A stretch of DNA of 64,000 bases from a virus (lineage: Duplodnaviria; Heunggongvirae; Uroviricota; Caudoviricetes): positions 1-64,000 of the IMG/VR virus record IMGVR_UViG_3300023314_000004. One strand, given 5' to 3'. Of the stretch, positions 16,211 through 40,611 are shown in pieces (the first letter of the stretch is position 1; each line of letters opens with the position of its first letter). The translations under genes were made by a program, and so were the position numbers. Below the pieces are notes generated by a model. That model was not told the origin of the DNA. It made no database searches and saw only the letters and a list, made by a program, of their open reading frames with translations.

Positions 16211-16618
16211 TCATTTTAAGGATTTTTTAAATGCTTCACTACATTCTTTATGAGTGGCATAAGCTGTAAATTCAGGATAAAAATAATGCATATCGTGGGG
16301 CGTACCTTTAATTATATCATCATGGCAATGTTCACAAACTTTATTACTACGTGCTCCTGTTCCCACTCCTCTACATTCATAATAATCTTCTTCTTTTAAA
16401 TATTCATGCTTTCCCTTTAACTTTTCTGAATTTTCAATTGCTTTTTTGTGTATATCTGCTCCTTCAAATGTTTCTACTGATCCAGTACATGACTCTCCCC
16501 AACCTTCGTCCATATCTTCTTGATCTCTCTCAGCATCATCTTCTGTTAAGAACCAAGCAGGGTAGGCTGATCCATCTCCTCCATTTTGAATGGAATACCA
16601 AACTATTACCTTTTTCAT
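16211..16618 (-). CDS. hypothetical Cys/His-rich protein
   Basis: 135 aa with CxxC/H clusters (…CEHCHDD…). Confidence 0.4.
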   Translation of the reverse strand: MKKVIVWYSIQNGGDGSAYPAWFLTEDDAERDQEDMDEGWGESCTGSVETFEGADIHKKAIENSEKLKGKHEYLKEEDYYECRGVGTGARSNKVCEHCHDDIIKGTPHDMHYFYPEFTAYATHKECSEAFKKSLK

Positions 16619-16821
16619 TTTAATTGATTTAATACATTTATCACTTCATCTATAGCTTCTACAGGAATTTGCATTCTTAAATAAGTGGTAGTTGAATTTG
16701 TTCTAGGATTAATTGATTCTACATCAATAACATCTCCTACTTTAGTTAAACTCAAGCCTACCTGATTTGGCCATTTAGACATTGCTACTGATTGTACTTG
16801 TCTATTATATCTTATTTCCAT
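16615..16821 (-). CDS. hypothetical protein
   Basis: 68-aa ORF between two translationally coupled neighbours. Confidence 0.35.
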   Translation of the reverse strand: MEIRYNRQVQSVAMSKWPNQVGLSLTKVGDVIDVESINPRTNSTTTYLRMQIPVEAIDEVINVLNQLK

Positions 16822-18476
16822 AATTTTTCTCTAATTTCTGTTAATGTCTGTTGATTCTCAAATTTACCATCTTCATAAATAGTCTGTAATAGTCCCTGAT
16901 TTTCTTCTTCCACTGTACATTCTTGTTTTACAGACAAATCTTCATTTACACATATGAAGCCTTTTAAAGATTTTTTAGTTCCATCTCCTGTAACAGGATC
17001 TTTATAGATGTTAAAGCCAGTTCTTATACCATCTTCTAAAGTTTCAAACCATGCTCCTTTAGCTGCATATCCGGCTGAATCTCTAGTGAGCATAATATAA
17101 GTATATGAACCTACTCCTAATACAATATTAGTAGAGGCAAATTCCTTAGCTGCTAGTCTTTCATACATTGCTATTTGTCTTTCAAGATTGATACTATCCC
17201 CATAAATAGCCCCGATGTGACTATCTAATCTTTTATAACCTTCTTTACTTTCATCTCCTCCAAATATGTCCCAAAGTAATTCTACTACACCTTTATGCCT
17301 AGGATGTAACACTACTTCACCATTAACAAGTTTTGCGTATGTATTCCCGCAAATTACAAAATCGTCACCTTCTCTAAGATGACTAGCTTTTACATCCATA
17401 GAGAGTTCTCCACAAATAATATCCACTGGATCACCTGTATCTGGACGTAATACTAATTTACCATCTCTAGCTAAAATTTCTTTTTTAAGTCTAGGAACAA
17501 TATATGTACAAGCTTTCCATGTATCAAAAGTATCACACACATAAGATAAGATACCTTTAGGAAATTTAATAAGCCAATCTCTAAGCATTAGCCATTCAGA
17601 AATAGCTAAATAATCAGGATTTTCCCTACTGCCGTCTGCCGGTAAATCAAATGAATAGTATTCTTCGATTTTATCATTTAGTAATCCAGCCTTAAGTTTA
17701 GCTTCATAATAGAAAATATTGGTGCAGCTTACACTATGTTCAGAAGCATTAACAGAATTAATACACACTTCATCCTCTGTTACATCGTAATAGTACCTAG
17801 CAGCGGATATTACATTTAAGCTATCACTACCTCTATTACTTAAAGCATGACCTAGACCTACTGCAATAGAACTAAAAGGATTACCACCTCTGCTATGAAA
17901 ATCATGGTTCATATAATCTGTAAGCCATAAATTTTCACTATCTGTCTTATTCACCCATTCTACACTATTCTTTTTAAATTGGTGTCCAATAGTAGCTGCT
18001 GTAGGCATTTGCCAAGCAAGTTTAGATATTAATGTTTCTAAAAACAACCCTAACCAAGCATATCCATCCACAGTATTAATACCTGTCATGTGAGGAATGT
18101 TAGGAGGAGTTAGTATTCCTTCAGGCAAAGCTTTAATTTTAATAGGGAGATAACCTAATTTATGTAAATCTACAAAATGTTGGGCATCATATTCCATTCC
18201 CAAGTATTTAGCCATATCCTCTCCAAATTTTTCTGCTACTTCTACAGATTGATCAAAAAACTCTTCTTGAAAAGAACTATGTAAATATCTAACAACTAAT
18301 TGTTGTCCTGCACTCATAATTTTAGTAATAGAAGGATGCATGAATTTTAAATTTCTAGGTATCCATGTCCAATATTCTTTTACAGTGGAAGGAGCTAACA
18401 TAGCTTTATGAGCAATTTTGTACCCGTCTACCTCATAAAGAGGATTGATTTTAAATGTTTTATTTAACTTTTCCAT
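16812..18476 (-). CDS. nicotinamide phosphoribosyltransferase-family enzyme (NAMPT/NadV-like; could equally be a NARP1 Namat-type enzyme)
   Basis: 554 aa. …LYEVDGYKIAHKAM… (TDSYKVTHY-like), …LVLRPDTGDPVDII… (RPDSGDP), …HIGAIYGDSI… (IQGDG). Size typical of phage NadV. Confidence 0.75.
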   Translation of the reverse strand: MEKLNKTFKINPLYEVDGYKIAHKAMLAPSTVKEYWTWIPRNLKFMHPSITKIMSAGQQLVVRYLHSSFQEEFFDQSVEVAEKFGEDMAKYLGMEYDAQHFVDLHKLGYLPIKIKALPEGILTPPNIPHMTGINTVDGYAWLGLFLETLISKLAWQMPTAATIGHQFKKNSVEWVNKTDSENLWLTDYMNHDFHSRGGNPFSSIAVGLGHALSNRGSDSLNVISAARYYYDVTEDEVCINSVNASEHSVSCTNIFYYEAKLKAGLLNDKIEEYYSFDLPADGSRENPDYLAISEWLMLRDWLIKFPKGILSYVCDTFDTWKACTYIVPRLKKEILARDGKLVLRPDTGDPVDIICGELSMDVKASHLREGDDFVICGNTYAKLVNGEVVLHPRHKGVVELLWDIFGGDESKEGYKRLDSHIGAIYGDSINLERQIAMYERLAAKEFASTNIVLGVGSYTYIMLTRDSAGYAAKGAWFETLEDGIRTGFNIYKDPVTGDGTKKSLKGFICVNEDLSVKQECTVEEENQGLLQTIYEDGKFENQQTLTEIREKLWK

Positions 18477-18868
18477 TCTTTTTGTTTTACTAATTTAACT
18501 AATAAACTTAATTCTTGGTATGTCTGAATAAGTCCGGAACGATCATCTAAAAGAGCTGAAAAGAAAGGTTTTTTAGTTTCATACCCTAAATCTATTCCTT
18601 TTCCATTAATTTCATCAAAAGGTATTTTATGTTCTACAAGAAAATTATTAACATAATCAAGATTTTTATAAGCTGTCCAACACCCTAATTTACATCCAAT
18701 ACTCTTTAATTCCCTTAAAAGATGTATTACATCTGTATGAATAGCTCCTGTTTTATGAAAATCATGGACAGTACCGTCAAAGTCGTAGCCGATGAATAGG
18801 CTTCCATATTTATTATATTCTTCTAATAGTCTTAGAAGGTTCTTATTTGGTTCTAAAAATTCATCCAT
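18464..18868 (-). CDS. small HAD-superfamily-like protein
   Basis: 134 aa. …FIGYDFDGTVHDF… matches HAD motif I (hhhDxDGT). Confidence 0.35.
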   Translation of the reverse strand: MDEFLEPNKNLLRLLEEYNKYGSLFIGYDFDGTVHDFHKTGAIHTDVIHLLRELKSIGCKLGCWTAYKNLDYVNNFLVEHKIPFDEINGKGIDLGYETKKPFFSALLDDRSGLIQTYQELSLLVKLVKQKEWKS

Positions 18869-19073
18869 TTAATGTTTCTATTATTTGTTTAGCAAATTTT
18901 CTATCTAAATTTTTCATTTCTTGCGAAAGTTCGTTATAAGATTTAAAACATTCTTTTTCCCATCTTTCTTTTCTTTCCGCAGAAATAAGGGGTTCTGATT
19001 CTAATAAAATCTTAGCCCATCCCATCCATAAATCATGGATGATAACCGCAACTAATTCTTCTTTATCTATCAT
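18861..19073 (-). CDS. hypothetical protein
   Basis: 70-aa ORF. Confidence 0.3.
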   Translation of the reverse strand: MIDKEELVAVIIHDLWMGWAKILLESEPLISAERKERWEKECFKSYNELSQEMKNLDRKFAKQIIETLNG

Positions 19074-19873
19074 ATAATTTTATATTGTGTTATAAAAGAA
19101 GACAATACTTCTTCAGGTAAATCTTTAACTGAATTTGTGCAATAAATACGATTTATACATTTATCCAAAGAACTCTCAGGATCTGTAAGTTCTAAGGGAG
19201 TGTTAAACCCTTTAGAGAAATAACCATGACTTATATATAGATTAACTACAGTAGCCCCCTGTTCTTTTAGGGCCTTAGAAAGGAGATAAAATGTATATCC
19301 TCCGTCACAAATGTCATCTATAATAAGACATGTCTTATCTTTAACATCCCCTAAAATATTTAATGATACTTTTCCTTGTAAATCCCTAAATTTATTAGCT
19401 GCTACTAAGGGTAGATCTAAGTCCTCGGCATATTTAAATACTTTCTTATAAGCTCCTGCATCAGGACTGACAAGTACTAAATTTTCCGTTCCTAAATCTT
19501 CAACAACTTGTTTTACATATTCAAAACTACTAATTTTTTCAGAATTGTTAATTAAAGCTAAAGAAACATCAGAATGAGGATCAAATATAGATACTTTTTG
19601 AAAATTCATTCTATTAATAAAATCTGTAATTTGCTTTAAGCCAAAGCTTTCATTATTAGAAAACCTTCTATCACTTCTTTGCCCAAATAAACAAGGTATT
19701 TCTAATGAATAAGCTTCTCTTGACCTATGTTTAATATCTAAAACTTCTTTTAAAGAAGCTATTTTAAATAAATCTTCATAACTATTTATTCTTTGCTTTA
19801 CAAGCCTAGTAGTAATATCTTCTGTTTCCACTTTAACATTTATCTGTCCATCAGGATATTTAATTATTTCCAT
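19070..19873 (-). CDS. ribose-phosphate pyrophosphokinase-family enzyme (Prs-like; could be an ADPR-pyrophosphate synthetase Adps-type enzyme)
   Basis: 267 aa. …LVSPDAGAYK… and PRPP-binding loop …CLIIDDICDGGYT… (hhhDDhhDTGGT-like). Confidence 0.75.
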   Translation of the reverse strand: MEIIKYPDGQINVKVETEDITTRLVKQRINSYEDLFKIASLKEVLDIKHRSREAYSLEIPCLFGQRSDRRFSNNESFGLKQITDFINRMNFQKVSIFDPHSDVSLALINNSEKISSFEYVKQVVEDLGTENLVLVSPDAGAYKKVFKYAEDLDLPLVAANKFRDLQGKVSLNILGDVKDKTCLIIDDICDGGYTFYLLSKALKEQGATVVNLYISHGYFSKGFNTPLELTDPESSLDKCINRIYCTNSVKDLPEEVLSSFITQYKII

Positions 19874-21012
19874 ATTACATATTTTTTATCTATTGTTTCT
19901 AATGCTCTGTCAAGGAAATCTTTATCTTTACTTCCTTTTATATAGAGTACGTATATTTCCGGAGCTATTCCTCTATATCCTCTCCCTGAGGTTTGTAAGA
20001 ATTCCAGTCCTTCATCATTGCCTGTAGAGAGTTGAACTATTACAACTGCTTCTATACCTTCCAGGTTCATTCCCTCTCTGCCCATTTTATAGAAGAAAAT
20101 ATTTTCTATTTCCTTATCATTAAATTGCCTAAGAATTTCTTCTTGTTTCTTCTTAGGTCTTTTACTATGAACGGCATATTCTCCCCCAACTAAATTACAC
20201 TGGTCTATATTACCAGTAAAAATTACTTTTCTCTTACCTTCTAATTCAATTAACAATTCTTTTAATTTACTAGTCTTCAAGGCTGAAAAGAAATTCTTTC
20301 TGGCTATCCCTATAGAATTGAATTTGTTTCTAATCCATAATTGTTTTGGATTATCTTCTAACCTTTTAGACCAATATTTCAAATCTGTAGCAAATTTATC
20401 TACATATGCTCTATCTGTTAATTTCACTTCTTTTTTACCAAATAAAGAAGTATTTCTCTTTATTTTATCATCTAGTTCTAGTCCTATAGCATAAATAGTT
20501 GGAGGAGGTAATATACCTTTCTCAATAGCATTCTTTAAAGAGAGCTTATAATAGTGAAAGTGTCCTAAAAGACTTAATCTTTCTTTAATATCTTCATTAA
20601 TTGTAGCACTGTCAACTAATATCCTACTATATTTAATAGTTTTAGATATATCTGTTCTACATTCACTAAGTCTATGTGTTTCATTACACCAAAGCTTTAA
20701 TTCTCTTCCTTCAAATTTATGTAAGGAAGCATAACATATTACATCTTCTATTTTATCATAGATGTGTTCCATATTATGCTTCCTTACATCATCTTGAAAA
20801 TTAATGATTTGTAAAGATTCAGGCATTAAAACAAGCCATTTTCCAGGTGTACTATCAGCTTCTATGATTTTCATACAGCTAAGTCCTTTCCCTGTCCCTG
20901 TTGCAGCTTCTATAGCTAGAAAAGGATGGAGCAAACTTAGCCTCACCACTTCTTTCTGAAAAAGCTCTCTTTCTATTTGTTGTTTTTCTAAATCCATACT
21001 ACAAATATACAA
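19864..21012 (-). CDS. SF2 helicase-like protein with deviant motifs I and II
   Basis: 382 aa. Motif I AATGTGKG (GKG rather than GKT), motif II-like WCNETHRL (DEAH position), motif III DSAT, motif VI LQTSGRGYRG. Confidence 0.5.
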   Translation of the reverse strand: MYICSMDLEKQQIERELFQKEVVRLSLLHPFLAIEAATGTGKGLSCMKIIEADSTPGKWLVLMPESLQIINFQDDVRKHNMEHIYDKIEDVICYASLHKFEGRELKLWCNETHRLSECRTDISKTIKYSRILVDSATINEDIKERLSLLGHFHYYKLSLKNAIEKGILPPPTIYAIGLELDDKIKRNTSLFGKKEVKLTDRAYVDKFATDLKYWSKRLEDNPKQLWIRNKFNSIGIARKNFFSALKTSKLKELLIELEGKRKVIFTGNIDQCNLVGGEYAVHSKRPKKKQEEILRQFNDKEIENIFFYKMGREGMNLEGIEAVVIVQLSTGNDEGLEFLQTSGRGYRGIAPEIYVLYIKGSKDKDFLDRALETIDKKYVIWK

Positions 21013-21261
21013 CTATTCTCCAAATTTCTTATTGTAATAGTAGTATATTTTCTGTAAAATTCTATCTAATGAAAAATGCTTTATTCCTGTATTAGTAAAT
21101 AATGTCTTTCCTTCAACCTGAAGGCAGAAGTTAGGAAAAGCTTTCTCAAATGTAATTAAAGGAAATGTTCCCCCTTTTTCTATATAGTATTCATAAAAAA
21201 GAGAGAGTGGAACTTCTTCCAACTCTCTCATAGCTATATATTCTTCTTTATTTAGTGGCAT
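21013..21261 (-). CDS. hypothetical protein
   Basis: 82-aa ORF. Confidence 0.3.
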   Translation of the reverse strand: MPLNKEEYIAMRELEEVPLSLFYEYYIEKGGTFPLITFEKAFPNFCLQVEGKTLFTNTGIKHFSLDRILQKIYYYYNKKFGE

Positions 21262-22414
21262 CTAGCACTTTTTTAATTTCATTCAAGCTCACTCTGTTAT
21301 CTTCATCTGCACATCCAATCCGATAGATTCTGGCATTTCCATCTACTAAAGACACACTAAAACCACCTAAAGCAAACATTTCATTAGCTGCCATTACTTT
21401 TTCATAGAATTCTTTAATTAAAGAAATTTTTAATTTTTCACTTTTACCCCTAATAGAGACAATGCCATCTTTAATAGTCAGAGTGGCATTCCTACTACCA
21501 ATATTTTCTAGCACTCTTGTACTAACAGATTCAATTTCAGCTGGTGTGGCAAGCCTAAAATCTGTAATTAAATAGTTAGTTGCATATTTATTGTCTTTTG
21601 GACAATACCTACTTCCATAATTTAATTGAGCTATACTAAAAGAACTATTGTAGCCTTCATCTAATTTAAACACTTTACCAGGAGCTTTATTTCCGAAAAA
21701 TTTTGTATTTTCTGTGTCTAAAACATAAACCCAATCTCCTACTTTAAATTGAGGAGCATAAGTAGGTTCAAACCATTTATCTAGCACATCTGCCCTAACT
21801 AAGGCTTTATGGGCAATACTATCTACTAAAATTTCCACTGTAGAAGTAATAGGCATTCCACCACATAAAACTTCAACTGCATTTTTAAATTCTAATGCAC
21901 TTTCTTTTAATTTATACCCTACAATAGGTTTTTCCTCTTGTTTTGCTTCAAAAACAGCAATTTCCTCAAAATCTTTTTTACTCATGACCCAAGGGTTTGG
22001 ATCGTCCATATCTGTATCAAATTGAACTGAAGATTTATTCACAGCTCTTACAAAATAATCCTTTCCATACATTGTATCTCTATATTTTTCTCTGTCATTT
22101 TTAACCCATAATGTTAGAGGTTCTGTTTCCTTAATTGAAAATTTATCTCCTTTTTTATATGTCATTGTATTTGTTTTTGGTATTAAATTAATTTCTACAT
22201 AAGAAGGAATATGTAGTTTTCCAGTTCCAGAGAAACTCTCAGATAATACATAACTATGTTTATACCCATACGTATTCTCTGCCCTATCAGCTGCTGAATA
22301 CTCATTTTGACACAAAAATACTTCCTTACCAACTATATTAATTTTTCCCTTTATTTTTGTATTACTAATTGCACCTGTAAATTCTTGTCCTTCTGTTATT
22401 TCTGAAATATTCAT
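21248..22414 (-). CDS. paralog-family protein 1 (variable N-terminus plus shared C-terminal domain)
   Basis: 388 aa. C-terminus RLATPAEIESV…IGSRNATLTIK…GGFSV…IGCADEDNRVSLNEIKKVL aligns with five other ORFs in this window. Internal FKVGDWVYV beta-barrel-like motif. Confidence 0.55.
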   Translation of the reverse strand: MNISEITEGQEFTGAISNTKIKGKINIVGKEVFLCQNEYSAADRAENTYGYKHSYVLSESFSGTGKLHIPSYVEINLIPKTNTMTYKKGDKFSIKETEPLTLWVKNDREKYRDTMYGKDYFVRAVNKSSVQFDTDMDDPNPWVMSKKDFEEIAVFEAKQEEKPIVGYKLKESALEFKNAVEVLCGGMPITSTVEILVDSIAHKALVRADVLDKWFEPTYAPQFKVGDWVYVLDTENTKFFGNKAPGKVFKLDEGYNSSFSIAQLNYGSRYCPKDNKYATNYLITDFRLATPAEIESVSTRVLENIGSRNATLTIKDGIVSIRGKSEKLKISLIKEFYEKVMAANEMFALGGFSVSLVDGNARIYRIGCADEDNRVSLNEIKKVLDATK

Positions 22415-22417
22415 TTT

Positions 22418-23239
22418 TTAAAATTTTACTTTTTCTAATACTTTTTGAATTTCGTTTAAGCTAACATAGTTAGATTCATCTGTACATCCTACTAAATATA
22501 CTTTTTCATCCCATTTATTGTTTTTAACACTAAATCCTCCAAGATCATATGCTATAGCAACTGCATTATAAAATTGTTTTAATTTAACAGCATCTAGGGT
22601 TTCTCTTTTACCTTCAATATGAATAGTAGTGCCTTTAATAGTTAAGGTGGCATTTCTAGTACCTATGCTTTTAATAACATCACTAGCTGCTATTTCTTCT
22701 GGTGTTGCTTTTCTATAATTTTTTTCGTCAAAAGTGCATTCGTAATTTTTAAATGATAGTCCTACACCTGAATAATGTGTAAGTTCTGCTATATCTCCTT
22801 CATTCATTCTTCCGAAACGTCCACCTTTATACCTAATTAAGTTGTCACCAACTTTAAATTTATCTGTAACATCTTCAAAATATTCAGGCCATGCAGCTGC
22901 TATTTTAAGGAATTTTGGGTTAATTGTATTATTAATTACATCTCCCACTTTAAGTTCATTCTTTTGTGTAGGGAATAGTTTTACTACTTTATATTCTTTC
23001 ATATCTTTTTGTTTTACATTTGTCTTTTTAAATGCTCCCACTCTATATAATTCTTCTTTTGTTGTAATATAATGATTTGAAAAAGGATACTCTTCTCTTT
23101 CAAAATGTACTTCTTCTCCTTCAATTTTAAATATTTTCTTCTCTCCTTGAAAGCTTGATGTGTTAAAAGGAGCATCTCCCCAAAAAGAACATTTATATTT
23201 TATTACACCTTTTATATTAAATTTATCTCCTACTTTCAT
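22418..23239 (-). CDS. paralog-family protein 2
   Basis: 273 aa. C-terminus RKATPEEIAAS…IGTRNATLTIK…GGFSV…VGCTDESNYVSLNEIQKVL. Three K/VGD motifs (MKVGDKF, LKVGDVI, FKVGDNL). Confidence 0.55.
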   Translation of the reverse strand: MKVGDKFNIKGVIKYKCSFWGDAPFNTSSFQGEKKIFKIEGEEVHFEREEYPFSNHYITTKEELYRVGAFKKTNVKQKDMKEYKVVKLFPTQKNELKVGDVINNTINPKFLKIAAAWPEYFEDVTDKFKVGDNLIRYKGGRFGRMNEGDIAELTHYSGVGLSFKNYECTFDEKNYRKATPEEIAASDVIKSIGTRNATLTIKGTTIHIEGKRETLDAVKLKQFYNAVAIAYDLGGFSVKNNKWDEKVYLVGCTDESNYVSLNEIQKVLEKVKF

Positions 23240-23252
23240 AATTTGTTTGTTT

Positions 23253-24158
23253 TTAAATAATTGTCATTGTTTTAAAAGAAGCTTCCATTTTAATAATTGC
23301 TGTTTCTCCTTCTCTATTTTTAATTATATGGAAATAAAGATTGGAAATATCTGTTGGTAAAGCATCTGGACCATAAGTATCTCCTACAAATTTTAATAAA
23401 TAAGGTCTATGTATGATAATAACATAATCAGAAGCTTGGAAAATACTGCTACTACTTGATAAACAAGATTGGTCTGGATAGTTTAATGGCGATTTAGGAA
23501 TTCTCCTTGAAGCACTTTCTATCTCTCTGTTTAATTGAGTGAGAAGTATATGAGTACACCATCCTTCATTTTTTTGTGCCATTATGTCTTTAGATAAATC
23601 TACTAACATTTCTCTATCTCCATTACCTGAACCTTTAAAAAGTAAGCTATGATCTGATAGGGCTATTATTTTTTTACCTGTTTTTTCATACCATCCTCTA
23701 CATATTTTAATATATTCTTCACTACTTTTAGGTTTTTCTATAAAATATATAGGTTTATCTTTTACACTTTCATAATAGGTATTAATAGCTTTTTCTTGCG
23801 TGATATTAATTGTATTTCCATTAGCAGATAACATTATTTCCCTATATATCTGAGTGTTAGCAATGGCATCTCTAATCATTAATTTAGAAGCTGGCATTTC
23901 AAAACTAAAGAAAAGAATGATAAAATCCTGTGTAGGATTATTTTCATGTAATTCTCTATATAATTGAGAAGCAAAAGCTGTTTTACCCGAACTACTCATA
24001 CCAGCAATAGTTAACATAGTTCCCATTTCTATTCCACCTAAGAGAGTTTTGTTTAACTTAGGCCAGGGAGTGATGAGAGGAGTGATAACACCAGTTTTTC
24101 TATCTTGTATTATTTGTTTAGCTTCCTTAGCTGCTTCTGATATATGTTTTCCTTCCAT
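23253..24158 (-). CDS. DnaB-like replicative helicase, C-terminal RecA-fold domain protein
   Basis: 301 aa. Walker A GMSSSGKTAFASQL, Walker B-like IIALSD. LLTQLNRE and IIIHRP resemble the DnaB motifs H3 (SQLNR) and H4 (LHRDDYY). Confidence 0.6.
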   Translation of the reverse strand: MEGKHISEAAKEAKQIIQDRKTGVITPLITPWPKLNKTLLGGIEMGTMLTIAGMSSSGKTAFASQLYRELHENNPTQDFIILFFSFEMPASKLMIRDAIANTQIYREIMLSANGNTINITQEKAINTYYESVKDKPIYFIEKPKSSEEYIKICRGWYEKTGKKIIALSDHSLLFKGSGNGDREMLVDLSKDIMAQKNEGWCTHILLTQLNREIESASRRIPKSPLNYPDQSCLSSSSSIFQASDYVIIIHRPYLLKFVGDTYGPDALPTDISNLYFHIIKNREGETAIIKMEASFKTMTII

Positions 24159-24160
24159 AA

Positions 24161-24703
24161 TTATTTTTTAGGCTCCATATTTAATCCTTCACCAAGGTAT
24201 GATCCATCTTGAATGATTCTAAAAGTTTTTACTGTAGCAAATGTTGTTATTTTTATAGTTAAATCTTTTAGACCAAAATTTTCTGCTATTATTTTACTAT
24301 TTACAAAATCTTCGATTTGTTTGGGATGAATATTTTCTATTAAATTCTCTCTAATAAATTCCCCAACAAATCCCATAGACATGCTACTAAGCGTCATTTC
24401 TGGATGATATAATGTATTATATAGTATTTGTATATCATTTATAGTGTAACCTATAGCAGATTTAATAGTCACTGTACTTCCGTCTTTTGTAGAAATAGTT
24501 TGCATAGGAATATCTATCATTCTCATTCTGGTTGTTTGTATATATGCTGTATCTATAAAAGGTATTTTTAGGTATAGCCCAGCTCCAAGTAACTTAACAT
24601 GTTTACCATTTCTTATTAATAAGGCTTGTTCCCAAGGCATAACAGTAAACCACCATTGAAATATTTTTACTAAAAAATTAGTTATTACATTAAATAATTC
24701 CAT
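24161..24703 (-). CDS. SPFH/band-7 (stomatin/prohibitin-like) domain protein with N-terminal hydrophobic segment
   Basis: 180 aa. …MPWEQALLIRNGKHVKLLGAGLYLKIPFIDTAYIQTTRMRMIDIPMQTISTKDGSTVTIKSAIGYTINDIQ… follows the SPFH consensus (PEGExAVVxRxGKxxxxLGPGLHFxIPFIDxVxxVDLRxxxLDVPPQxVITKDNVxVxVDAVVYYRVxD). Confidence 0.55.
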   Translation of the reverse strand: MELFNVITNFLVKIFQWWFTVMPWEQALLIRNGKHVKLLGAGLYLKIPFIDTAYIQTTRMRMIDIPMQTISTKDGSTVTIKSAIGYTINDIQILYNTLYHPEMTLSSMSMGFVGEFIRENLIENIHPKQIEDFVNSKIIAENFGLKDLTIKITTFATVKTFRIIQDGSYLGEGLNMEPKK

Positions 24704-25278
24704 TACAATATATTTGATTTAAATTCTATTTCTTCTATTTCGTCTTTACATAATTCAATATAAGGTTCATAAAGTTTTTCTCTTAGATAGATTTCAGAAC
24801 CACTTATATATGTAAGTTGACTTGTTCCTCTTTTCAAAGAAAGCTTTTTAGCCTGTTCTATATGATATTCTGTAGCTTTTATAATTAAATTAGGGTCTAA
24901 TCCCTCACTGATAGCTTTTTTAAATAAAAGTTTACATTTTTCCTTATTTTTTCTTTTACTTTGAACGCCATCAAATTTCCTTCCCTCATAGCTAAAAGCA
25001 TCTGAAGGAGGATAGATTTTCCACCAATCTTCAAACTTGTCTACAATTTTTATTTTAGGTGTTTCTGTGTTATTTTGACAACTTTCATATAAAGATTTTC
25101 CTACATCTGTGACATTTCCTTCAAATAACAGAGATTTTCTCTCCATTAAAGATATTAATGCCTTAGTTTTAGGATGTTCTTCATCTATTACATCACCTTC
25201 TATATAAAATTGAAGGAAGGATATAACATCACTGCTATATCCCTCATCAACTATTTGTTTCCACTTTTCATAATTCAT
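24703..25278 (-). CDS. hypothetical protein
   Basis: 191-aa ORF. Confidence 0.45.
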   Translation of the reverse strand: MNYEKWKQIVDEGYSSDVISFLQFYIEGDVIDEEHPKTKALISLMERKSLLFEGNVTDVGKSLYESCQNNTETPKIKIVDKFEDWWKIYPPSDAFSYEGRKFDGVQSKRKNKEKCKLLFKKAISEGLDPNLIIKATEYHIEQAKKLSLKRGTSQLTYISGSEIYLREKLYEPYIELCKDEIEEIEFKSNIL

Positions 25279-25291
25279 ATATCAAAGATAG

Positions 25292-25642
25292 TTAAATTCC
25301 TGCAATTTTCCTTAATAATACAGGAGATGTGCCGAGAATAATGTTTTCAGCATCACTAAAAACAATAGGTCTTCCTTTTACGTAACCTTTTACAAGTCGT
25401 TCAAGAGCTTTTGTTTTTAATTTTTCGTATTTTAAATATTCAGCTACAATTACTAAATCTTTTTGATTTACTTTAACAGCTCCACAACCAAATAAAACTT
25501 TACCATTTTCTCTTGTAATATCCCAAATTCCACCTCTAAAATTTCTAGGTGTTTGACTAATAACTTTTTTTGGAGCAATTTCTATAGCTCTTTCTTCTAA
25601 ATGTTCTTTAATAAGAATTTGTGCTTGTTCTAATTTGTTCAT
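25292..25642 (-). CDS. hypothetical protein
   Basis: 116-aa ORF. Confidence 0.4.
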   Translation of the reverse strand: MNKLEQAQILIKEHLEERAIEIAPKKVISQTPRNFRGGIWDITRENGKVLFGCGAVKVNQKDLVIVAEYLKYEKLKTKALERLVKGYVKGRPIVFSDAENIILGTSPVLLRKIAGI

Positions 25643-25750
25643 TGTTTATAATTTTATTGTTAATATCTATTCCTATTACCATAGGAACTATTTCATCTTC
25701 TCCTAAATATATAGTGTCTAATAGAGCGCAACGCTCAAAATCTTCCTCTA

Positions 25751-26320
25751 TCATCTTAATGATATTAATCTATTTAATAAATTTAAATCAATTAAAGTGT
25801 TATTAATGGTGATTTTAGCATTTACAGGTTCAGAAATTAACTTAGTTAAGAATTTTAAATCATCTTTTGTAAAAGATTGGCAGCCAAATTGTATTTTTCC
25901 ATTTATAATTTCTGCTTTATAGCCATTAATTTCTGGACGAGCAGTAACTTTTGCTATTTCCTCTTTTGTAGCTGTTCTGGCAACTTCTTTAGAAGTGTCT
26001 ATATCAAAACCATAAAATCCATCTGTCCAATTTTCTTTGTCTACTTTGACGATTTTAACTGTTATAGGGTAGGATAATTGTAAAGGACTATTGTTATTAA
26101 ACCTACTAGACCAATATCTAGGGGCTTTTGTCAATGTAATCCAATTATCTACTTCAAATAAAATTTCATTACATGGAGAAAACCATTCTGGATCAGTTAT
26201 TTGTGTTTGATCAAAATAATATTCTCCTTCTTCGTTCTCATAGCTTTCGCTTTCTTCATCATATATAAATATAGATCCCTTTTTTAGTCCAGGAAGATCC
26301 TTTAATAGCTTGTATTTCAT
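25751..26320 (-). CDS. paralog-family protein 3
   Basis: 189 aa. C-terminus RTATKEEIAKVTARPEINGYKAEIINGKIQFGCQSF…L matches the shared family motif. Confidence 0.5.
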   Translation of the reverse strand: MKYKLLKDLPGLKKGSIFIYDEESESYENEEGEYYFDQTQITDPEWFSPCNEILFEVDNWITLTKAPRYWSSRFNNNSPLQLSYPITVKIVKVDKENWTDGFYGFDIDTSKEVARTATKEEIAKVTARPEINGYKAEIINGKIQFGCQSFTKDDLKFLTKLISEPVNAKITINNTLIDLNLLNRLISLR

Positions 26321-26324
26321 ATTT

Positions 26325-26711
26325 TTAATTTATAAGTTTATAAAGTTCTTCTACTTTACTAAAAGGTATTTTTTGACAACCTACATTTACAATTTTATTA
26401 ACTTTATCTACAACTGCATCATAATCATTGGTTAATGATAGTTTTATAGGTTGTTCTTTCTCATAATTATCGCAATATTCGATAAATTCTTCTATAGAAA
26501 TCCAATCTCTGCCAATATCTAATCTTTTATTATGGCTAGATCCACATAATTCATTTTTTAGAAAAGTGAGATTAGGATAGGCTGAATATCTATCTGGAGT
26601 ATAGTCTGCTTTATTGTATATAGGTATATTCTTATCTGATGCGTAACTAAGTAAAGCTTTCCATATATCATATGTGAGGCATACTACTGTAGATGTGTCT
26701 TTAAATGTCAT
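26325..26711 (-). CDS. hypothetical protein
   Basis: ORF track gives 26325..26789. The internal Met at 26711 (MTFKDTSTVV…) avoids a 73-nt overlap with the upstream gene. Confidence 0.4.
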   Translation of the reverse strand: MTFKDTSTVVCLTYDIWKALLSYASDKNIPIYNKADYTPDRYSAYPNLTFLKNELCGSSHNKRLDIGRDWISIEEFIEYCDNYEKEQPIKLSLTNDYDAVVDKVNKIVNVGCQKIPFSKVEELYKLIN

Positions 26712-26716
26712 AATTT

Positions 26717-27115
26717 TTATTTTTGGATCATTACATGAATTTCTTTTGGATATTCGGCGAAGAATTTTAATGTGGCTGGGCAAAGCCAACCTTCCATACC
26801 TGTTCCTCTCATAACATACCAGCCTGTTTCTTCTAAATTACTATCTCCTGATAAAGCTACTCTATCAAGGACAATATTTTCGCCTGGAATAGGGGAATGA
26901 GAGATAAATGCTGTAAATTCATTGCCTTCTACTACTGTTGCAATAATAGGATTAATATTGGAAACAAAAGGTTCCTCATATAGTCCTACAGCTTCGTCGT
27001 TAAACACCCAAACGTTATTCTTTTTAAATACATTTAAGACATTGATTTGATTGCCAGTTTTATCTTTTAACTGAGCTATAGGTTCAAAAGCTTCTGCATT
27101 TCTTTTAAAGTTCAT
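26717..27115 (-). CDS. hypothetical protein
   Basis: 132-aa ORF. Confidence 0.45.
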   Translation of the reverse strand: MNFKRNAEAFEPIAQLKDKTGNQINVLNVFKKNNVWVFNDEAVGLYEEPFVSNINPIIATVVEGNEFTAFISHSPIPGENIVLDRVALSGDSNLEETGWYVMRGTGMEGWLCPATLKFFAEYPKEIHVMIQK

Positions 27116-27126
27116 CTTGAATATTT

Positions 27127-27894
27127 TTAAAGTGAATTTTGTGTTTGTTTTAATAATAATACATCTTCAGCTGTTAAAGCTACTCCATATTGACATCCGA
27201 TTTGGACTTGCGATACTTTTATATCATATCCTTGTACAACATCCACTCTTTTATAGAGAGACTGAATACCATCTACTTCTTTTTTGGTAAATCTCCTAAC
27301 ACTTCCCTCTCCATCTACCACTTCAATCTTATCTTTATATATTGTAAATTGTCTTTTAGGAGAGCCTAGTTCTAATTTCTTAGACTTAATTTCTTCTTCA
27401 TAAATAGGATCAAACCATAGTTCTAAAGTTTTAAGCTCTCTATATAAACGTTCTGTAATACAATTATTTGTAAAAGCTTCCCCAAAACTATAAGAACCAA
27501 ATTGGTCATTATCTTGTTTACTTAATCGGGCAATCTCTTTCTCTTGGATTTTAAACTCTTCTTTAAGTTTCCATCCAACTATTACTTTTTCTTCTTGATT
27601 TGGCATGTCTGTAAATTTAACTATAAAAAAATTTCCTCCTTTGTAACTATCTTCTTCTAATTCATAATAATCTGAAGTAATTCCTTTTATTACTAGATTT
27701 AAATCAAAACTAATTGTAGAAAAAGGCTTGTTTAAATTTAAATTTTTTGTTGTATTAAAAATAGTTCCTTTAGGTAATGTAACTTTATCTCCTATTTTAT
27801 ATTTCATATTTGTTTGTTTATAATATTTTAATAAATTATCTGTCTTAGTATAACTATCATCTCCTTCTAGTCTCTGGAAGCTTTTAAAATCCAT
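27127..27894 (-). CDS. paralog-family protein 4
   Basis: 255 aa. C-terminus RFTKKEVDGIQ…VQGYDIKVSQVQIGCQYG…L. N-terminal YKIGDKVTLPKG motif. Confidence 0.5.
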   Translation of the reverse strand: MDFKSFQRLEGDDSYTKTDNLLKYYKQTNMKYKIGDKVTLPKGTIFNTTKNLNLNKPFSTISFDLNLVIKGITSDYYELEEDSYKGGNFFIVKFTDMPNQEEKVIVGWKLKEEFKIQEKEIARLSKQDNDQFGSYSFGEAFTNNCITERLYRELKTLELWFDPIYEEEIKSKKLELGSPKRQFTIYKDKIEVVDGEGSVRRFTKKEVDGIQSLYKRVDVVQGYDIKVSQVQIGCQYGVALTAEDVLLLKQTQNSL

Positions 27895-28002
27895 ATAACC
27901 AACTACTTTAAATAATTCTTCTTTTATCTAAGATACGAAAATAAGGATGTTCTCTTATTGTTTCATATTTTACTTCTTCTACATTACTATAAGGTTTTTC
28001 CA

Positions 28003-28719
28003 TTAGTTAAGTTTTTTATATTCTCTAATAATAAGTTTAAGATCTGAAATAGAAAATAGATTGTTCTCTTCTAAACATCCGATACGAATGAATTTAACAT
28101 CTTCATCAGACTTCACTTCCCAATTTTGCCCCACTCTAATGTTATTTTCATTTGTATAGACATTAAGAATTTTCTGTACTCTCTCTATTTCTGCTGTATA
28201 TCCTCTAAAAGCTATTTTACCCACTCCTACAGTAATTTCTACATTATTACTGCCTAATTTAAGAACCTTTTCTTCTTTTTCATAAACAGGTTCCCAATAT
28301 TCACTGTGGCTAAAATAAGCTTTAGTAAAATTGTCTATTCTACCATGACTATAGACATAACTAGCTCCTTCGCCAGAATTAAGAGATAAAGTTTCTCTAC
28401 CTAATTCTCCTATCATGCCAGGATATTCTTTAATTAATTTATAAGCAATAATCTTTTTCATTGTCTTTTCATTTAAATAATGTTCTCTTAATTGTTTCAC
28501 TGTTACTTCTGTATAATTTTTAGGCAAAGTTGAAAGCAAATCCATTCTTAAAATATTATCTTTATTTGACGATAAAATATAATAACCACTAGTTGCATTA
28601 CCTGTAGCATTAATATAATTTTTATATTTAGACTTATAGTCTGTAAAGAAATCTTCTAATTCCTTCCCTCCTTTACAAGCCCATTTTTCTGGAAAATCTT
28701 CAAAATCAATATCTGACAT
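28003..28719 (-). CDS. paralog-family protein 5
   Basis: 238 aa. C-terminus RGYTAEIERVQ…IRIGCLEENNLFSISDLKLII. Confidence 0.45.
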   Translation of the reverse strand: MSDIDFEDFPEKWACKGGKELEDFFTDYKSKYKNYINATGNATSGYYILSSNKDNILRMDLLSTLPKNYTEVTVKQLREHYLNEKTMKKIIAYKLIKEYPGMIGELGRETLSLNSGEGASYVYSHGRIDNFTKAYFSHSEYWEPVYEKEEKVLKLGSNNVEITVGVGKIAFRGYTAEIERVQKILNVYTNENNIRVGQNWEVKSDEDVKFIRIGCLEENNLFSISDLKLIIREYKKLN

Positions 28720-28750
28720 TTCTATTGTAGTGTAATATGGAATATCACTT

Positions 28751-28942
28751 TTACCTCCAGATGAAGCTAAAATAATAAGTATATTTAGACTCGTAAGAAC
28801 TAAGATTAGGGCATATTACTTTTAATTTCAAATATTCTTTTTCTGAAGTAATGTGGACTACTAAATTACCCTCAGAAGGTGTTACATATTTATTTAATTG
28901 TTCTTTTGTATATTTCATAAATTTTTGTTTTAGTTCTTCCAC
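28751..28942 (-). CDS. hypothetical small protein
   Basis: 63-aa ORF. Confidence 0.3.
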   Translation of the reverse strand: MEELKQKFMKYTKEQLNKYVTPSEGNLVVHITSEKEYLKLKVICPNLSSYESKYTYYFSFIWR

Positions 28943-28987
28943 TTAACTATGACGTTTATAGCCCTAAAGACTTGTGGAAGAAGATTT

Positions 28988-29224
28988 TTAATAAGCTTTA
29001 AATGCGATGGGTTTATGTTTTGCTGTGTAAGCTAGATATTCCGGAGATGGAGTGTAGCTATACCTGTTCCCAGGATAAAATCTCACTCTACTTAAATTAG
29101 CTTCCAACATGAATCTGTTGAATTTATTTAATAGTTTCTGACCAGAATTAGGTTTCCATACATTTGTTATGGTTCCTGGTTTATAGCTTCCTACTGGAAT
29201 GCATTGATTTCTTTTACTTAGCAT
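28988..29224 (-). CDS. hypothetical protein
   Basis: 78-aa ORF. Confidence 0.3.
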   Translation of the reverse strand: MLSKRNQCIPVGSYKPGTITNVWKPNSGQKLLNKFNRFMLEANLSRVRFYPGNRYSYTPSPEYLAYTAKHKPIAFKAY

Positions 29225-29364
29225 GAGTGTTAAAATAAAAAGTGAGGAATAATATTATATTTAATACGAATATAACTGCAATAGCTATATCTGAATAGTC
29301 TTTATGAGGCTTAAAATGTGTCATAAAAAGAAAAGGAGAGGAATTTCACCTCTCCTGTAATTAA

Positions 29365-29712
29365 TTAAAAACTGGCTAAAAGTTCCTCAAAATATTTAGC
29401 TGCTTCTACTGTAGCCTCTAAATTAGCTTTAGCTTCATTTACTTTACGTTGAGCTGTAAGAATATTAGAGATATATGTTTCATTTTGAGAAATGATAGTT
29501 ACAGGATATTTAGCTGCTTCGAGGTTTTCTTCAGCTTCTTCAAGGGTGTTTTCTAAATCTACTTTTTTAGAGTTAAGACTAGCTAATTGACCTTCAATAG
29601 CTGATACAGCTTTACGACTGATTTTAGCAGCTAGAGCTTCTGTACCGTCTCCGGTTAAACGTGCAAGTACTTCCTTAATAAATAATTGACCTTTTTTGAT
29701 TTCGTTTGACAT
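29365..29712 (-). CDS. coiled-coil protein
   Basis: 115 aa, Ala/Glu/Leu-rich heptads (…LENTLEEAEENLEAAK…NEAKANLEATVEAAKYFEELL). Confidence 0.45.
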   Translation of the reverse strand: MSNEIKKGQLFIKEVLARLTGDGTEALAAKISRKAVSAIEGQLASLNSKKVDLENTLEEAEENLEAAKYPVTIISQNETYISNILTAQRKVNEAKANLEATVEAAKYFEELLASF

Positions 29713-29715
29713 AAC

Positions 29716-31137
29716 TTAAATTTTTATTTGTTTAATTGAAATAACTCCAAGTTGTTTAGGAGTTTGTTGTGTAAAAATAGTAAAATCCATAGATTCTACT
29801 TTTGGTTTAAAAAATTCTTCTACAATATTATTTTTACCCCATAAAGTTGCTACTAATTCTTCAAATGTAGGTTTTATGGGCTGATCTGGCTCTGTGTACA
29901 TCAACCTCTTACTTACGTTATGATTGTGTACGGATTTCAGGTAAGCATCTCCTATATTTGTTAACATATCTACACTAGGAACATCTACTATTCCTAAATC
30001 TGAAGGGAATATTTCTTTTCGACTATCTCCTGTAAAAAAGTCTCTTCTATCACCATATCCTAAATTTTCGTCTTCAGCTGTGTAAAGTGCTTTATTTTGA
30101 GTGTATTTTACTCCATCTTCAAACCATCTAAATCCTAATTCAAATAGCTTCTCCTGCACTTTTCTACTTAATTCGGGATTATCCCCTATCCAGATTTTTG
30201 TACTTCTAAAGTCTTTTTTAGGTTCTTCTATTATTTCTGCCCATTTTCCTTCATAGTATAAACACCCTCTTCCATCAGCTCCTCTTAAGCATGTTATATT
30301 AATCCCATTTCTAGAACTATTCCATGCAGGATCACATGTTGTTACTGTATGTATAACATTTTTATGTTGTTTTATAGGATTTCTAAATTTAGTACCTATA
30401 GGATATTTAAGTTTAGCTTGGGCTAATAGATCTGGTTTAATTTCAGTAAAGTTTAAACCTATTCCATCTGGTTTCCAATCTTCAGGCATTAACTCATATT
30501 TATGAGGATTTTTAAGAGAGGTACTATAAACGCTGTAATTATCGTGGCTAGGAAAATTAATAATAAAGGTTTCTGAAACTTTTGTTTCTATTTTGCCTAT
30601 TTCACCACTTTTTATAAATCCTCCATCTGGTGAATTTGTGACAGTTTTTACATATCTACCTACTAAACTTACTTCTTTAGGCTTATTTTGAGCTTCATAA
30701 GCTTCTTTTGTAGAAGGTTTGAAAACTGGATTATCGTATTTTAAAACGAAATTTTTAACTCCATTATCATAATTAGGATAACCTGTTTCTTCTACTCTAT
30801 AAACTTTACCTAAAGTAAAATAGGTATAACCTTTTCCTATAAATTCTACATATTCTGGAATGGAAGGTATTTTATCAGGATGTCCTTCAGGAAGATGTTT
30901 TTGTATAATTTCCTCAGAAACATCTAATTCAGAGATATTGTCTATATTATTAAAGCATCCTGAACTTCCACTTAAAGTACCACAATTAATTATCCAAGGA
31001 TCAAAATGAACATAATCTGTACTAAGTTTGCTTACTTTTCCTATTTGTTTCCCTAAATTATTAGGATTAAATTCGTACCATTTATTTATTTCCCATGACA
31101 TAATTTTATTTTTTATTAATGATGATGCTCCATTCAC
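29716..31137 (-). CDS. hypothetical protein
   Basis: 473-aa ORF. Internal basic/Gly beta-strand-like segments (…GRYVKTVTNSPDGGFIKSGEIGKIE…). Confidence 0.5.
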   Translation of the reverse strand: MNGASSLIKNKIMSWEINKWYEFNPNNLGKQIGKVSKLSTDYVHFDPWIINCGTLSGSSGCFNNIDNISELDVSEEIIQKHLPEGHPDKIPSIPEYVEFIGKGYTYFTLGKVYRVEETGYPNYDNGVKNFVLKYDNPVFKPSTKEAYEAQNKPKEVSLVGRYVKTVTNSPDGGFIKSGEIGKIETKVSETFIINFPSHDNYSVYSTSLKNPHKYELMPEDWKPDGIGLNFTEIKPDLLAQAKLKYPIGTKFRNPIKQHKNVIHTVTTCDPAWNSSRNGINITCLRGADGRGCLYYEGKWAEIIEEPKKDFRSTKIWIGDNPELSRKVQEKLFELGFRWFEDGVKYTQNKALYTAEDENLGYGDRRDFFTGDSRKEIFPSDLGIVDVPSVDMLTNIGDAYLKSVHNHNVSKRLMYTEPDQPIKPTFEELVATLWGKNNIVEEFFKPKVESMDFTIFTQQTPKQLGVISIKQIKI

Positions 31138-31257
31138 CTTTTTCCCATGCAGCCATATCTACACCTTTTACAGGCATAGTGGTTGTAAAGGAAGTGGTAT
31201 AGTAAATAGGCTCACCTTTTCTGGGCAAGCCTATTAACAATTTTATTAAAAATTTCC

Positions 31258-32478
31258 TCATAGAGCTAATAATTTATCTATTTCTTCTAAGGTTAATGGA
31301 TGAACACCATTTAAACTAATTCCAAATTTAACTTCAGTACGAGATAATAAGTCTTTTAGAACATTTAAAGTGTTAGTATCAAAAGATTGACATCCAAATT
31401 TAACTCCATTAGAAGTTTTTTCTGCTTTATAGCCTAAGATTTCAATAGTTTGAGCTGCTTTAACCTCTTCTGGAGTAGCTTTTCTGTAATGACCATCATC
31501 AATACCTCCTGTTAAAATGGTATTCAATAACTTAGCTGTAAACATCATCCCTCCACAATACTGTGTTTTATCTTTAGTAAGTTCTAATACAGTACCTAAT
31601 TTAGTCCCACTAAGCCATCCTGTAGGATTTTTAGTTAACACTACGTAATCTCCCACTTTAAAATCAGGAACTACTTCAAACCAAAGATCTAATACACCAG
31701 CTTCTTTTAAACTATTGTATACAGAACTATCCTGATTAAAAGTATTCATTACTGTTGTCCCTGAAATTTTATTTGCTGCTTCTTTAAATTTTAAATAGTT
31801 AAATTCTTTTTTTAATTGATATTGTTTCATATTGTTTTGTTTTATTAATTTTCTAAATTGTTCTATTGTTATTTCTGTATGACCTTCTTGTATATCGTAA
31901 GACGATCTTTTGTGATCTGTATTATTCACTGCATGAGAATGAACATAACCTGAAGGTGATTTATAGCCATCTCTATCATTATTTAAAAGATTATTATTAC
32001 ACCAATCATTAATTTCTCTACAATTGTCTGAATTTCTTCTAATATACCATTTTTCTGGTAGTTCTTCAGGAAGAGTTATAATTTTACATCCTTTAGATAG
32101 AAGATAATTTTCATTATTATAAACAAATTCACCATTTAACATCCCATAAAATCTATGACTAGAACCACGAACTTTTGTGTTATATCCTCTTAAATCTCCA
32201 GTATTTACACCCTGTTCTTTCCACCATTTAATCACTTTAACTCCATGTTCTGCATCTAACACTTCTATAACACAATTGTTATAGTCTTGTTTTTCCTCTA
32301 GTAATTCACATTGAGCATCTGATTGAGTTTCTGCATAAGGTTGAATAATATTTCCATCCTCCATTTGAACAAAATAACTTATTTTGTTTATACTTGTAAT
32401 TACTCCTATTTGACCTTCATAATTAGATCGAAAAGGGTAATCTTTAATTTTTACTTTATCACCAATTTTACCTTTCAT
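31258..32478 (-). CDS. paralog-family protein 6
   Basis: 406 aa. C-terminus RKATPEEVKAAQTIEILGYKAEKTSNGVKFGCQSFDTNTLNVLKDLL. MKGKIGDKVKIKD N-terminus plus internal FKVGDYVVL. Confidence 0.55.
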   Translation of the reverse strand: MKGKIGDKVKIKDYPFRSNYEGQIGVITSINKISYFVQMEDGNIIQPYAETQSDAQCELLEEKQDYNNCVIEVLDAEHGVKVIKWWKEQGVNTGDLRGYNTKVRGSSHRFYGMLNGEFVYNNENYLLSKGCKIITLPEELPEKWYIRRNSDNCREINDWCNNNLLNNDRDGYKSPSGYVHSHAVNNTDHKRSSYDIQEGHTEITIEQFRKLIKQNNMKQYQLKKEFNYLKFKEAANKISGTTVMNTFNQDSSVYNSLKEAGVLDLWFEVVPDFKVGDYVVLTKNPTGWLSGTKLGTVLELTKDKTQYCGGMMFTAKLLNTILTGGIDDGHYRKATPEEVKAAQTIEILGYKAEKTSNGVKFGCQSFDTNTLNVLKDLLSRTEVKFGISLNGVHPLTLEEIDKLLAL

Positions 32479-40589: not shown

Positions 40590-40611
40590 TTACAAAATGA
40601 ACAGTTCTCGG

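Follow-up and report, generated by a model that had tools for sequence, protein, structure and literature searches.

The DNA considered here is a stretch of 64,000 nucleotides (positions 1 to 64,000 of IMG/VR virus record IMGVR_UViG_3300023314_000004), below called the window, and our subject is a set of open reading frames (ORFs) between positions 21248 and 32478 whose products end in related sequences. An earlier note, made from the letters alone, had proposed that six ORFs in this interval form a paralogous family built on one C-terminal module. These six, labelled A to F in the list below, all lie on the minus strand where the note had placed them, and every peptide that it quoted was found. 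The members are built from small modules that occur in a collinear order: an N-terminal SH3-like barrel, a module termed M0, the PEKW module (LPEKWYI…EITFEQFKK), the IIGYK module (IIGYK…VLDLWFEPVYEE, that is, IIGYK…WFEPVYE), a second SH3-like barrel that starts with FKVGDWV and closes with a helix R-x-A-T-P-E-E-I, and finally the C-terminal domain. The last of these has a long form with two repeats and a shorter form, called the CF type, at the ends of C and F. Module matches by hidden Markov model (HMM) are given in brackets where available.

21248..22414, minus strand: member A, 388 amino acids; N-terminus without an assigned module, then IIGYK at 21749-21934 (1e-11), SH3-like barrel plus RLATPAEI helix at 21524-21748 (4e-14) and two-repeat C-terminal domain at 21251-21556 (3e-28).
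22418..23239, minus strand: member B, 273 amino acids; IIGYK at 22865-23002, SH3-like barrel at 22685-22858, two-repeat domain at 22424-22714.
25751..26320, minus strand: member C, 189 amino acids; SH3-like barrel plus RTATKEEI helix at 25943-26158, short CF-type terminus (INGYKAE…FGCQSF…) at 25757-25951.
26325..26711, minus strand: 'h', a probable seventh member, ending in a single repeat with the Gly-Cys pair (G-C).
27127..27894, minus strand: member D, 255 amino acids; IIGYK at 27391-27582, joined directly to a divergent two-repeat domain at 27139-27399.
28003..28719, minus strand: member E, 238 amino acids; PEKW at 28462-28701 (8e-17), IIGYK at 28270-28461, two-repeat domain at 28006-28299.
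31258..32478, minus strand: member F, 406 amino acids, with the full series; N-terminal SH3-like barrel at 32287-32469, M0 at 32074-32277, PEKW at 31831-32073, IIGYK at 31669-31830, SH3-like barrel plus RKATPEEV at 31450-31662, CF-type terminus at 31261-31461.

Composition-corrected BLASTP within the window linked A with B at 5.7e-24, C with F at 2.4e-9, B with F at 5e-8 and A with F at 6.8e-6, and gave weaker values for A with E (0.002-0.004) and D with E (0.007-0.008). An HMM of the core of about 40 residues, built from the six, scored the members at 4e-18 to 4e-13 and noise from 0.9 upward, with two extra ORFs in between at 0.003-0.005. For the long C-terminal domain a profile was made mainly from outside database sequences; it recovered A (1.6e-29), B (2.5e-27), E (2.5e-25) and D (5e-10) and missed C and F (E>1), which a CF profile scored at about 1e-24 to 1e-29. 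These two profiles are related to one another. In profile-profile comparison the CF end matched the long domain at 96% (P=3e-9) with the RxATPEEI helix included and at 66% (P=5.5e-5) with it excluded, and it matched repeat 2 alone at 88% (P=3.2e-6); weak matches joined the CF tail to the last part of repeat 1 (P=2.5e-4) and the two repeats to one another in register (P=1.4e-4). Two ORFs match both the long-domain and the CF profiles, one in the window (26325-26789) and one on the related contig L004 (11514-12755), and the database protein P0159 joins an F-like N-terminus to a long C-terminal domain. Because of the profile-profile links, the ORFs that match both profiles and the combination seen in P0159, we conclude that the six ORFs are one true paralogous family with two arrangements of the same repeat. 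The proposal of a shared C-terminal module therefore holds in that the ends of all six are related, but they present two repeat arrangements rather than one identical module. The DNA repeats of the region (IGSRNATLTIK, FKVGD, GYKAE, LNEIKKVL) merely reflect this coding homology.

With profiles of the repeats, the six members and the ORF at 26325-26789 are the top seven of the 139 window ORFs of at least 60 amino acids. This ORF, 'h', is listed from a TTG, and the ATG at 26711, 5 nucleotides past the upstream stop, is the likelier start. Its single G-C repeat at 26328-26429 reads …YDAVVDKVNKIVNVGCQKIPFSKVEELYKLIN, also given as …IVNVGCQKIPFSKVEELYKLIN, and it scored 0.0026 with the six-core HMM, 3e-4 with the CF profile and 0.0065 with the long-domain profile. 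At its extreme C-terminus hhalign returned P=9.4e-5 and 2.6e-4, as against 6.5e-4 for the best unrelated ORF. On these scores 'h' is probably the seventh member. A further candidate, the minus-strand ORF at 25292-25642, contains 'GKVLFGCGAVKVNQKDL' / 'GKVLFGCG', which resembles the core (six-sequence HMM E=0.005); it was rejected on the larger profiles (P 0.005-0.055), and the look-alike is probably due to chance. The family thus consists of six or seven real paralogous early-region genes made of shuffled small modules, and the multigene family that had been proposed for the replication and early block of this phage is borne out by BLASTP and by the profile searches.

In A, B, D and E the C-terminal domain spans about 90-100 residues and follows the pattern …IGSxNxxVxIxKxxIxxxG…I…L…Y… and then IGGYxV…RFIRIGCxxENNLFSLNELxxVI, the two parts being the two repeats. 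What the earlier note took for an insert shared by A and B (IGxRNATLTIK…GGFSV) is really repeat 1, which A, B, D and E share with the 154 aligned family members and which C and F lack. The G-C pair stands in the second repeat of A, B, D and E and in the first repeat of C and F. The CF-type homologues (P0155-P0163) read I-x-G-Y-K-A-E-x5-V-K-F-G-C-Q-S-F-…-helix, followed by a short tail.

The structure of the domain of A was predicted with AlphaFold2 from a 64-sequence alignment. The model is confident (mean predicted local distance difference test, pLDDT, 91.6; predicted template modelling score 0.77), with the topology H-EEEE-H-EEEE-H. DSSP placed strands at residues 14-20, 25-30, 33-36 and 42-44 and a helix at 45-59 in the first half, and strands at 62-64, 67-69, 77-80 and 89-91 and a helix at 92-102 in the second. 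The structure prediction that had been suggested for the shared domain yields confidently predicted ββββα repeats, and their best structural match is the protein recruiter SsgB (PDB 3cm1, 9% identity). A full-length model of F reached a pLDDT of 79 overall and about 90 in its C-terminal half, in which the CF-type end begins with four strands, the G-C pair lying at the β3-β4 turn, and continues with a helix, a short hairpin and another helix.

Although overall identity is only about 25-40%, G77 and C78 are invariant in 154/154 aligned domains, and R72, R75, E81-N82-N83, S86, E89 and G19 of the 'IGS' turn are strongly conserved, so that conservation is concentrated in the β7-β8 hairpin. S86-x-x-E89 looks like a helix cap. 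Judged by strand periodicity, the side chains of I74, I76 and C78 share a side that is presumably the core, F73 and R75 presumably face the other, and the outward-facing positions of repeat 1 appear to vary. Among the outward-facing strand positions, F73 and R75 are the only conserved residues. The net charge of the domain, taken as a proxy for binding of single-stranded nucleic acid, has a median of 0 and ranges from -12 to +6; the isoelectric point (pI) has a median of 6.5, with 42% of domains below 6 and 36% above 8.

The N-termini, which the earlier note had described as largely unrelated, instead reuse the collinear modules listed above, as module HMMs show: F carries all of them, A and B combine IIGYK, SH3 and the C-terminal domain, E combines PEKW, IIGYK and the domain, D has IIGYK and the domain, and C has SH3 and the domain. 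Since P0159 mixes an F-like N-terminus with the long domain, N-terminal modules shuffle onto either C-terminal type. The middle module superposes on SH3, Tudor or KOW folds as a small five-stranded β-barrel. In P0005 (L001 1834-3735, NCBI GCA_040384225.1) about six tandem units of SH3-like barrel plus 'RxATPEEIEEFN' precede the C-terminal domain, and the barrel-helix unit is therefore a repeatable module. A diversity-generating retroelement was considered as well and rejected, there being no reverse transcriptase among the ORFs scanned.

The TPEEI motif does begin a helix, as had been supposed (H6-13 in the AlphaFold2 model). It had also been offered as a landmark of the shared domain, and here we disagree: RxATPEEI belongs to the SH3-like module and is absent, with that module, from D and E. 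The peptides quoted in its place, 'RFTKKEV' in D and 'GYTAEIERV' in E, sit within repeat 1 and are not homologous to it. With its T-x-x-E spacing and a Pro at N1, RxATPEEI resembles a helix-capping box, and it would seem to be a generic capping linker that goes with the SH3-like module before it and lies outside the core of the domain.

A HMMER scan of 1.84 billion cluster representatives returned 161 proteins at E<=1e-3, 42 of them at <=1e-10. C-terminal position was scored for 152 of 153 family proteins, and in 152/152 the domain terminates within 12 residues of the C-terminus, preceded by 0 to 490 residues; a few proteins consist of the domain alone (88-108 amino acids). This strict position and the variable length before it fit the constant anchoring or docking type of module that had been envisaged. 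For the C-terminal domain Pfam gave no significant match, either with the window proteins or with 148 family members, and NCBIfam gave no meaningful match among the 148. No PHROG covers the domain, the most frequent being phrog_3444 on the SH3-like module; the PDB sequence search gave chance ribosomal matches only, and the best match among BFVD structures was not significant (E 0.16). The INPHARED phages were searched at the DNA and protein levels with the region, with F and A and with a consensus-like domain; no relevant match emerged, and the sole hit was weak, lay in the N-terminal part and fell on an uncultured, unannotated phage of 636 kb. The pattern [FC]IRIGCxxEN found no relative in a set of one genome per GTDB species and one contig in IMG/VR. 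The earlier reader had not recognised the domain, and none of these curated collections does so either, nor did any structural PHROG match. It is a new, autonomous, strictly C-terminal and previously uncatalogued domain of 65-100 residues, a new sequence family whose fold class is probably a known one.

The window (30% GC) holds a minus-strand block with an exonuclease, an HNH protein, rIIA/rIIB, PolA, a primase, a superfamily 2 (SF2) helicase, a DnaB-like helicase, an SPFH protein and, for nucleotide metabolism, NAPRTase-like and PRPP-synthetase-like proteins. A plus-strand structural block with terminase, portal and major head protein begins at about 46.9 kb, and the presence of both blocks identifies the window as phage. 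The genes nearest to the family are as follows.

16812-18476, 18464-18868 and 19070-19873, minus strand: NAPRTase / phrog_1238 / PRPP-synthetase trio.
19864..21012, minus strand: SF2 helicase (Helicase_C), which closes a DnaB-B-A-orf82-helicase block.
21013-21261, minus strand: orf82, 82 amino acids, overlapping the end of A by 14 nucleotides and abutting the SF2 helicase.
23253..24158, minus strand: DnaB-like helicase (Pfam DnaB_C 4.2e-24), directly upstream of B and A.

The operon is tight, B starting 13 nucleotides past the DnaB stop and A 3 nucleotides past B. On the related contig L006 two members likewise stand between DnaB and the SF2 helicase, in the order DnaB, member, member, and the SF2 helicase arrangement recurs in L005 and L006. 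In L005 and L006, too, an ORF similar in size to orf82 (82-86 amino acids) separates the helicase from the family members; the tail of orf82 (…GIKHFSLDRILQKIYYY) bears a weak resemblance to the end of the domain, which is not significant (P=0.007). Directly upstream of DnaB in the same operon is an SPFH/Band-7 protein (24161-24703, minus strand, Pfam 6.8e-14), and the order Band_7 then DnaB recurs in L005.

Copies of the family are found repeatedly in related loci, all of 28-31% GC. There are two to five copies in each of L001, L002, L004 and L006, three of the related contigs are phage contigs of 116-128 kb, and in two cases copies lie directly downstream of DnaB. L002 (a contig of 127,780 bp that also encodes PolA and DnaB) has three members spread over 21 kb; on L004 (an IMG/VR contig of 116,928 bp) three members of the long type and two of the CF type fall within 10 kb; L006 has three in 10.9 kb and L001 two in 3.7 kb. 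The single copy of L008 (a contig of about 116 kb), at 9652-10441, is split over three frames, in the order SH3/PEKW, then PEKW, then IIGYK plus the C-terminal domain, and stand-alone PEKW ORFs of about 80-100 amino acids are also present (listed at 16445-16744 and 17032-17277). This pattern suggests ongoing module shuffling or decay, or else assembly frameshifts. In the crAss-like phage cr113_1 no annotated member stands beside DnaB, and the module profiles found none at that locus. Window proteins occur also on a 122,055-bp metagenomic contig, and a protein identical to A has been gene-called in public data (P0001). The terminase is closest to that of Leptolyngbya phage Lbo-JY46 (40% identity), followed by Cellulophaga phi4:1 and phi17:2 (32%) and crAss-like phages (25-29%), so the nearest cultured relatives by this gene have Bacteroidota or a cyanobacterium as hosts. 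For DnaB the closest matches are in crAss-like phages (37-39%), and a DNA search of the INPHARED phages with the region found no match. As a whole, these comparisons show that the family is a conserved, multi-copy and actively shuffled feature of an uncultured phage clade.

Scans of the region for promoters (90 against 78±9 in shuffled sequence) and terminators (4 against 4±1.9) gave no excess over expectation. The region's only convincing terminator-like hairpin, at 29334-29356 on the minus strand (8-bp stem, 5 GC pairs, T-run), is just downstream of ORF 29365-29712 and may split the family genes into two or more transcription units. In the trio listed above, the NAPRTase/NAMPT-like protein (554 amino acids, Pfam NAPRTase 1.5e-15) and the PRPP-synthetase-like protein (267 amino acids, Pribosyltran/Pribosyl_synth) flank a 'phosphoheptose isomerase'-like ORF; the two look like a phage NAD+ salvage or reconstitution pair, a kind that is reported to counter NAD-depleting defences. 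Elsewhere in the window, 2722-4089 and 4113-6359 on the minus strand are rIIB-like and rIIA-like genes (PHROG 1.6e-19 and 1.5e-39; crAss-related phage), and a single tRNA-Ile (anticodon TAT) lies at 40610-40685, also on the minus strand.

The genomic setting of the members, the replication and early block, is non-structural, and we read them as non-structural phage proteins; the host-takeover or anti-defence role first imagined for them is not supported. We favour the reading, to which we assign a probability of about 0.4, that the C-terminal module serves all members as a common docking or pairing unit and carries adaptor modules that vary, because charge is not conserved, conservation is localised, the best structural match is SsgB and one-repeat members exist. 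The absence of a conserved charge speaks against a general binder of nucleic acids and is in keeping with contact to a protein. A single ββββα repeat does not fold unless a second one is present (PMC7549692), and pairing is therefore implied for the one-repeat members. Each protein is put together from a small set of SH3/Tudor-like barrels, PEKW and IIGYK…WFEPVYE modules and a constant ββββα-repeat end. In A, B, D and E the two repeats make up one compact domain of about 90 residues; C and F have the G-C-bearing repeat first and then a truncated second unit, and 'h' has one repeat. Repeats could pack within one chain or, where single, between chains. The conserved patch R-F-I-R-I-G-C-x-x-E-N-N…S-x-x-E would then be displayed to a common partner, most likely a component of the phage replication machinery, and different cargo or contacts would be supplied by the variable N-terminal barrels. 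The comparisons above establish homology and modularity, the strict C-terminal position, the predicted topology and the conservation of several copies across related phages. Several points weigh on the other side. Pairing, docking and the identity of the partner are inferences, and for helix swapping and surface exposure strand periodicity is the sole basis; there is some circularity in the invariance of G-C, since the profile that collected the sequences rewards G-C; and a location in the replication operon fits nucleic-acid binding equally.

The main rival, of which we are doubtful, is that the domain is instead a compact type I PC4/Whirly/PUR-like unit that binds single-stranded DNA or RNA. 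The proteins would then be accessory replication, recombination or transcription factors whose N-terminal SH3/Tudor/KOW-like barrels recruit other factors. The ββββα-ββββα topology is the one that defines PC4-like type I domains, and the phage T5 homologue of PC4 (4bg7) supplies a phage precedent in replication (PMC7549692). The genes lie among those for DnaB, SF2 helicase, primase, PolA and exonuclease, with A and B directly after DnaB as in L006, and the conserved, outward-facing F73 and R75 on β7 could stack on or contact bases. However, neither the charge (median 0, -12 to +6, 42% with pI below 6) nor the β-surface of repeat 1 is conserved, the domain has about 90 amino acids rather than the roughly 150 of described type I domains, and Pfam gave no Whirly, PurA, PC4 or SsgA match.

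A more elaborate proposal, which we consider rather unlikely, is that the ββββα repeats are a phage-specific, miniaturised PC4/Whirly-like module that has been repurposed for protein recruitment, as in SsgB, and assembles hetero-oligomeric scaffolds. Paralogs that have one repeat ('h' and perhaps C and F) would pair among themselves or with two-repeat paralogs, so that six to eight members could assemble combinatorially and hang SH3/Tudor-like adaptors on the replisome or on a host target. If this were true, a crAss-related clade of phages would possess a modular recruitment system of a new kind.

The invariance of Gly77 and Cys78 (154/154) at about 25-40% identity, together with the adjoining acidic/amide loop, could be taken to mean that function has nothing to do with fold class and that the invariant Cys and the E-N-N loop belong to a small enzyme or to a ligand- or metal-binding unit. 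We judge this improbable, since there is a single conserved Cys with no conserved His or second Cys; moreover, strand periodicity puts this Cys on the face that also bears the hydrophobic I74 and I76, where it is probably buried, the CF type retains G-C without the E-N-N loop, and the invariance is in part imposed by the search profile. A lipobox at G-C was also rejected, the pair being C-terminal and a signal peptide absent.

In virion-attached adaptor proteins a constant terminal module is typically joined to a variable remainder, and on this general ground the members might be virion components (decoration, cargo or fibre) with a constant C-terminus for attachment. That is very improbable here: all members are in the minus-strand replication and nucleotide-metabolism block, apart from the plus-strand block of terminase, portal and capsid genes, A and B share an operon with DnaB, and no structural PHROG matched. 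A tail-fibre-like structural family was likewise rejected as lying in the wrong genome block. Lastly, the notion that the similarity reflects chance or low complexity, a danger recognised when the family was proposed and suggested by nothing but the AT-rich composition (30% GC), is ruled out by composition-corrected BLASTP down to 6e-24, profiles from outside sequences that score 1e-10 to 1e-29, 161 database relatives with the same C-terminal placement, the comparison of all ORFs and the confident structure prediction.

The outcome is a new domain family, whose 161 cluster representatives come without exception from uncultured material, and a set of four or five companion modules by which several 'ORFan' genes in each genome are accounted for. 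The clade that carries them comprises little-known phages of about 115-130 kb with relatives among the Cellulophaga phi4:1-like, Leptolyngbya Lbo-JY46 and crAss-like phages. Should the domain turn out to be a docking or pairing unit, or a miniature binder of single-stranded DNA, this would annotate hundreds of metagenomic proteins and give a handle on early-gene function in these phages. The family is also a clean example of domain shuffling among phage paralogs, and we regard the result as a useful annotation of dark matter in a crAss-related clade, solid rather than startling.

With respect to known systems, the SsgA-like proteins, to which SsgB belongs, are recruiters of FtsZ confined to actinomycetes. 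The family domain has no Pfam SsgA signature and no actinomycete distribution, and whereas SsgB is a stand-alone protein of about 137 residues (3cm1 chain), the family domain is a C-terminal module of 65-100 amino acids in AT-rich phages. The KVGD…RxATPEEI module had no Pfam SH3, Tudor or KOW match among the window proteins and the 148 family members, and unlike those barrels it is trailed by a characteristic T-P-E-E helix cap; phrog_3444, whose function is not known, maps to this module and matches 9/148 members. The same Pfam searches, at E<=1 for the window proteins and at E<=1e-3 for the 148 members, yielded no Whirly, PurA, PC4 or DUF2128 match, and the PDB sequence search none relevant to PC4/Whirly/PUR. 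The likeness to the PC4-like proteins is one of topology. Type I members of that group, namely Whirly p24/PBF-2, trypanosome MRP1/MRP2 and repeats I-II of Pur-alpha, have β-β-β-β-α-linker-β-β-β-β-α in one chain of about 150 amino acids (PMC7549692), and the AlphaFold model of the family domain (pLDDT 91.6) has the same β4-α-linker-β4-α succession in one chain. Type II members (T5 4bg7, YdbC) are single ββββα units that must pair, and C, F and 'h' resemble versions of such units with one repeat or one and a half.

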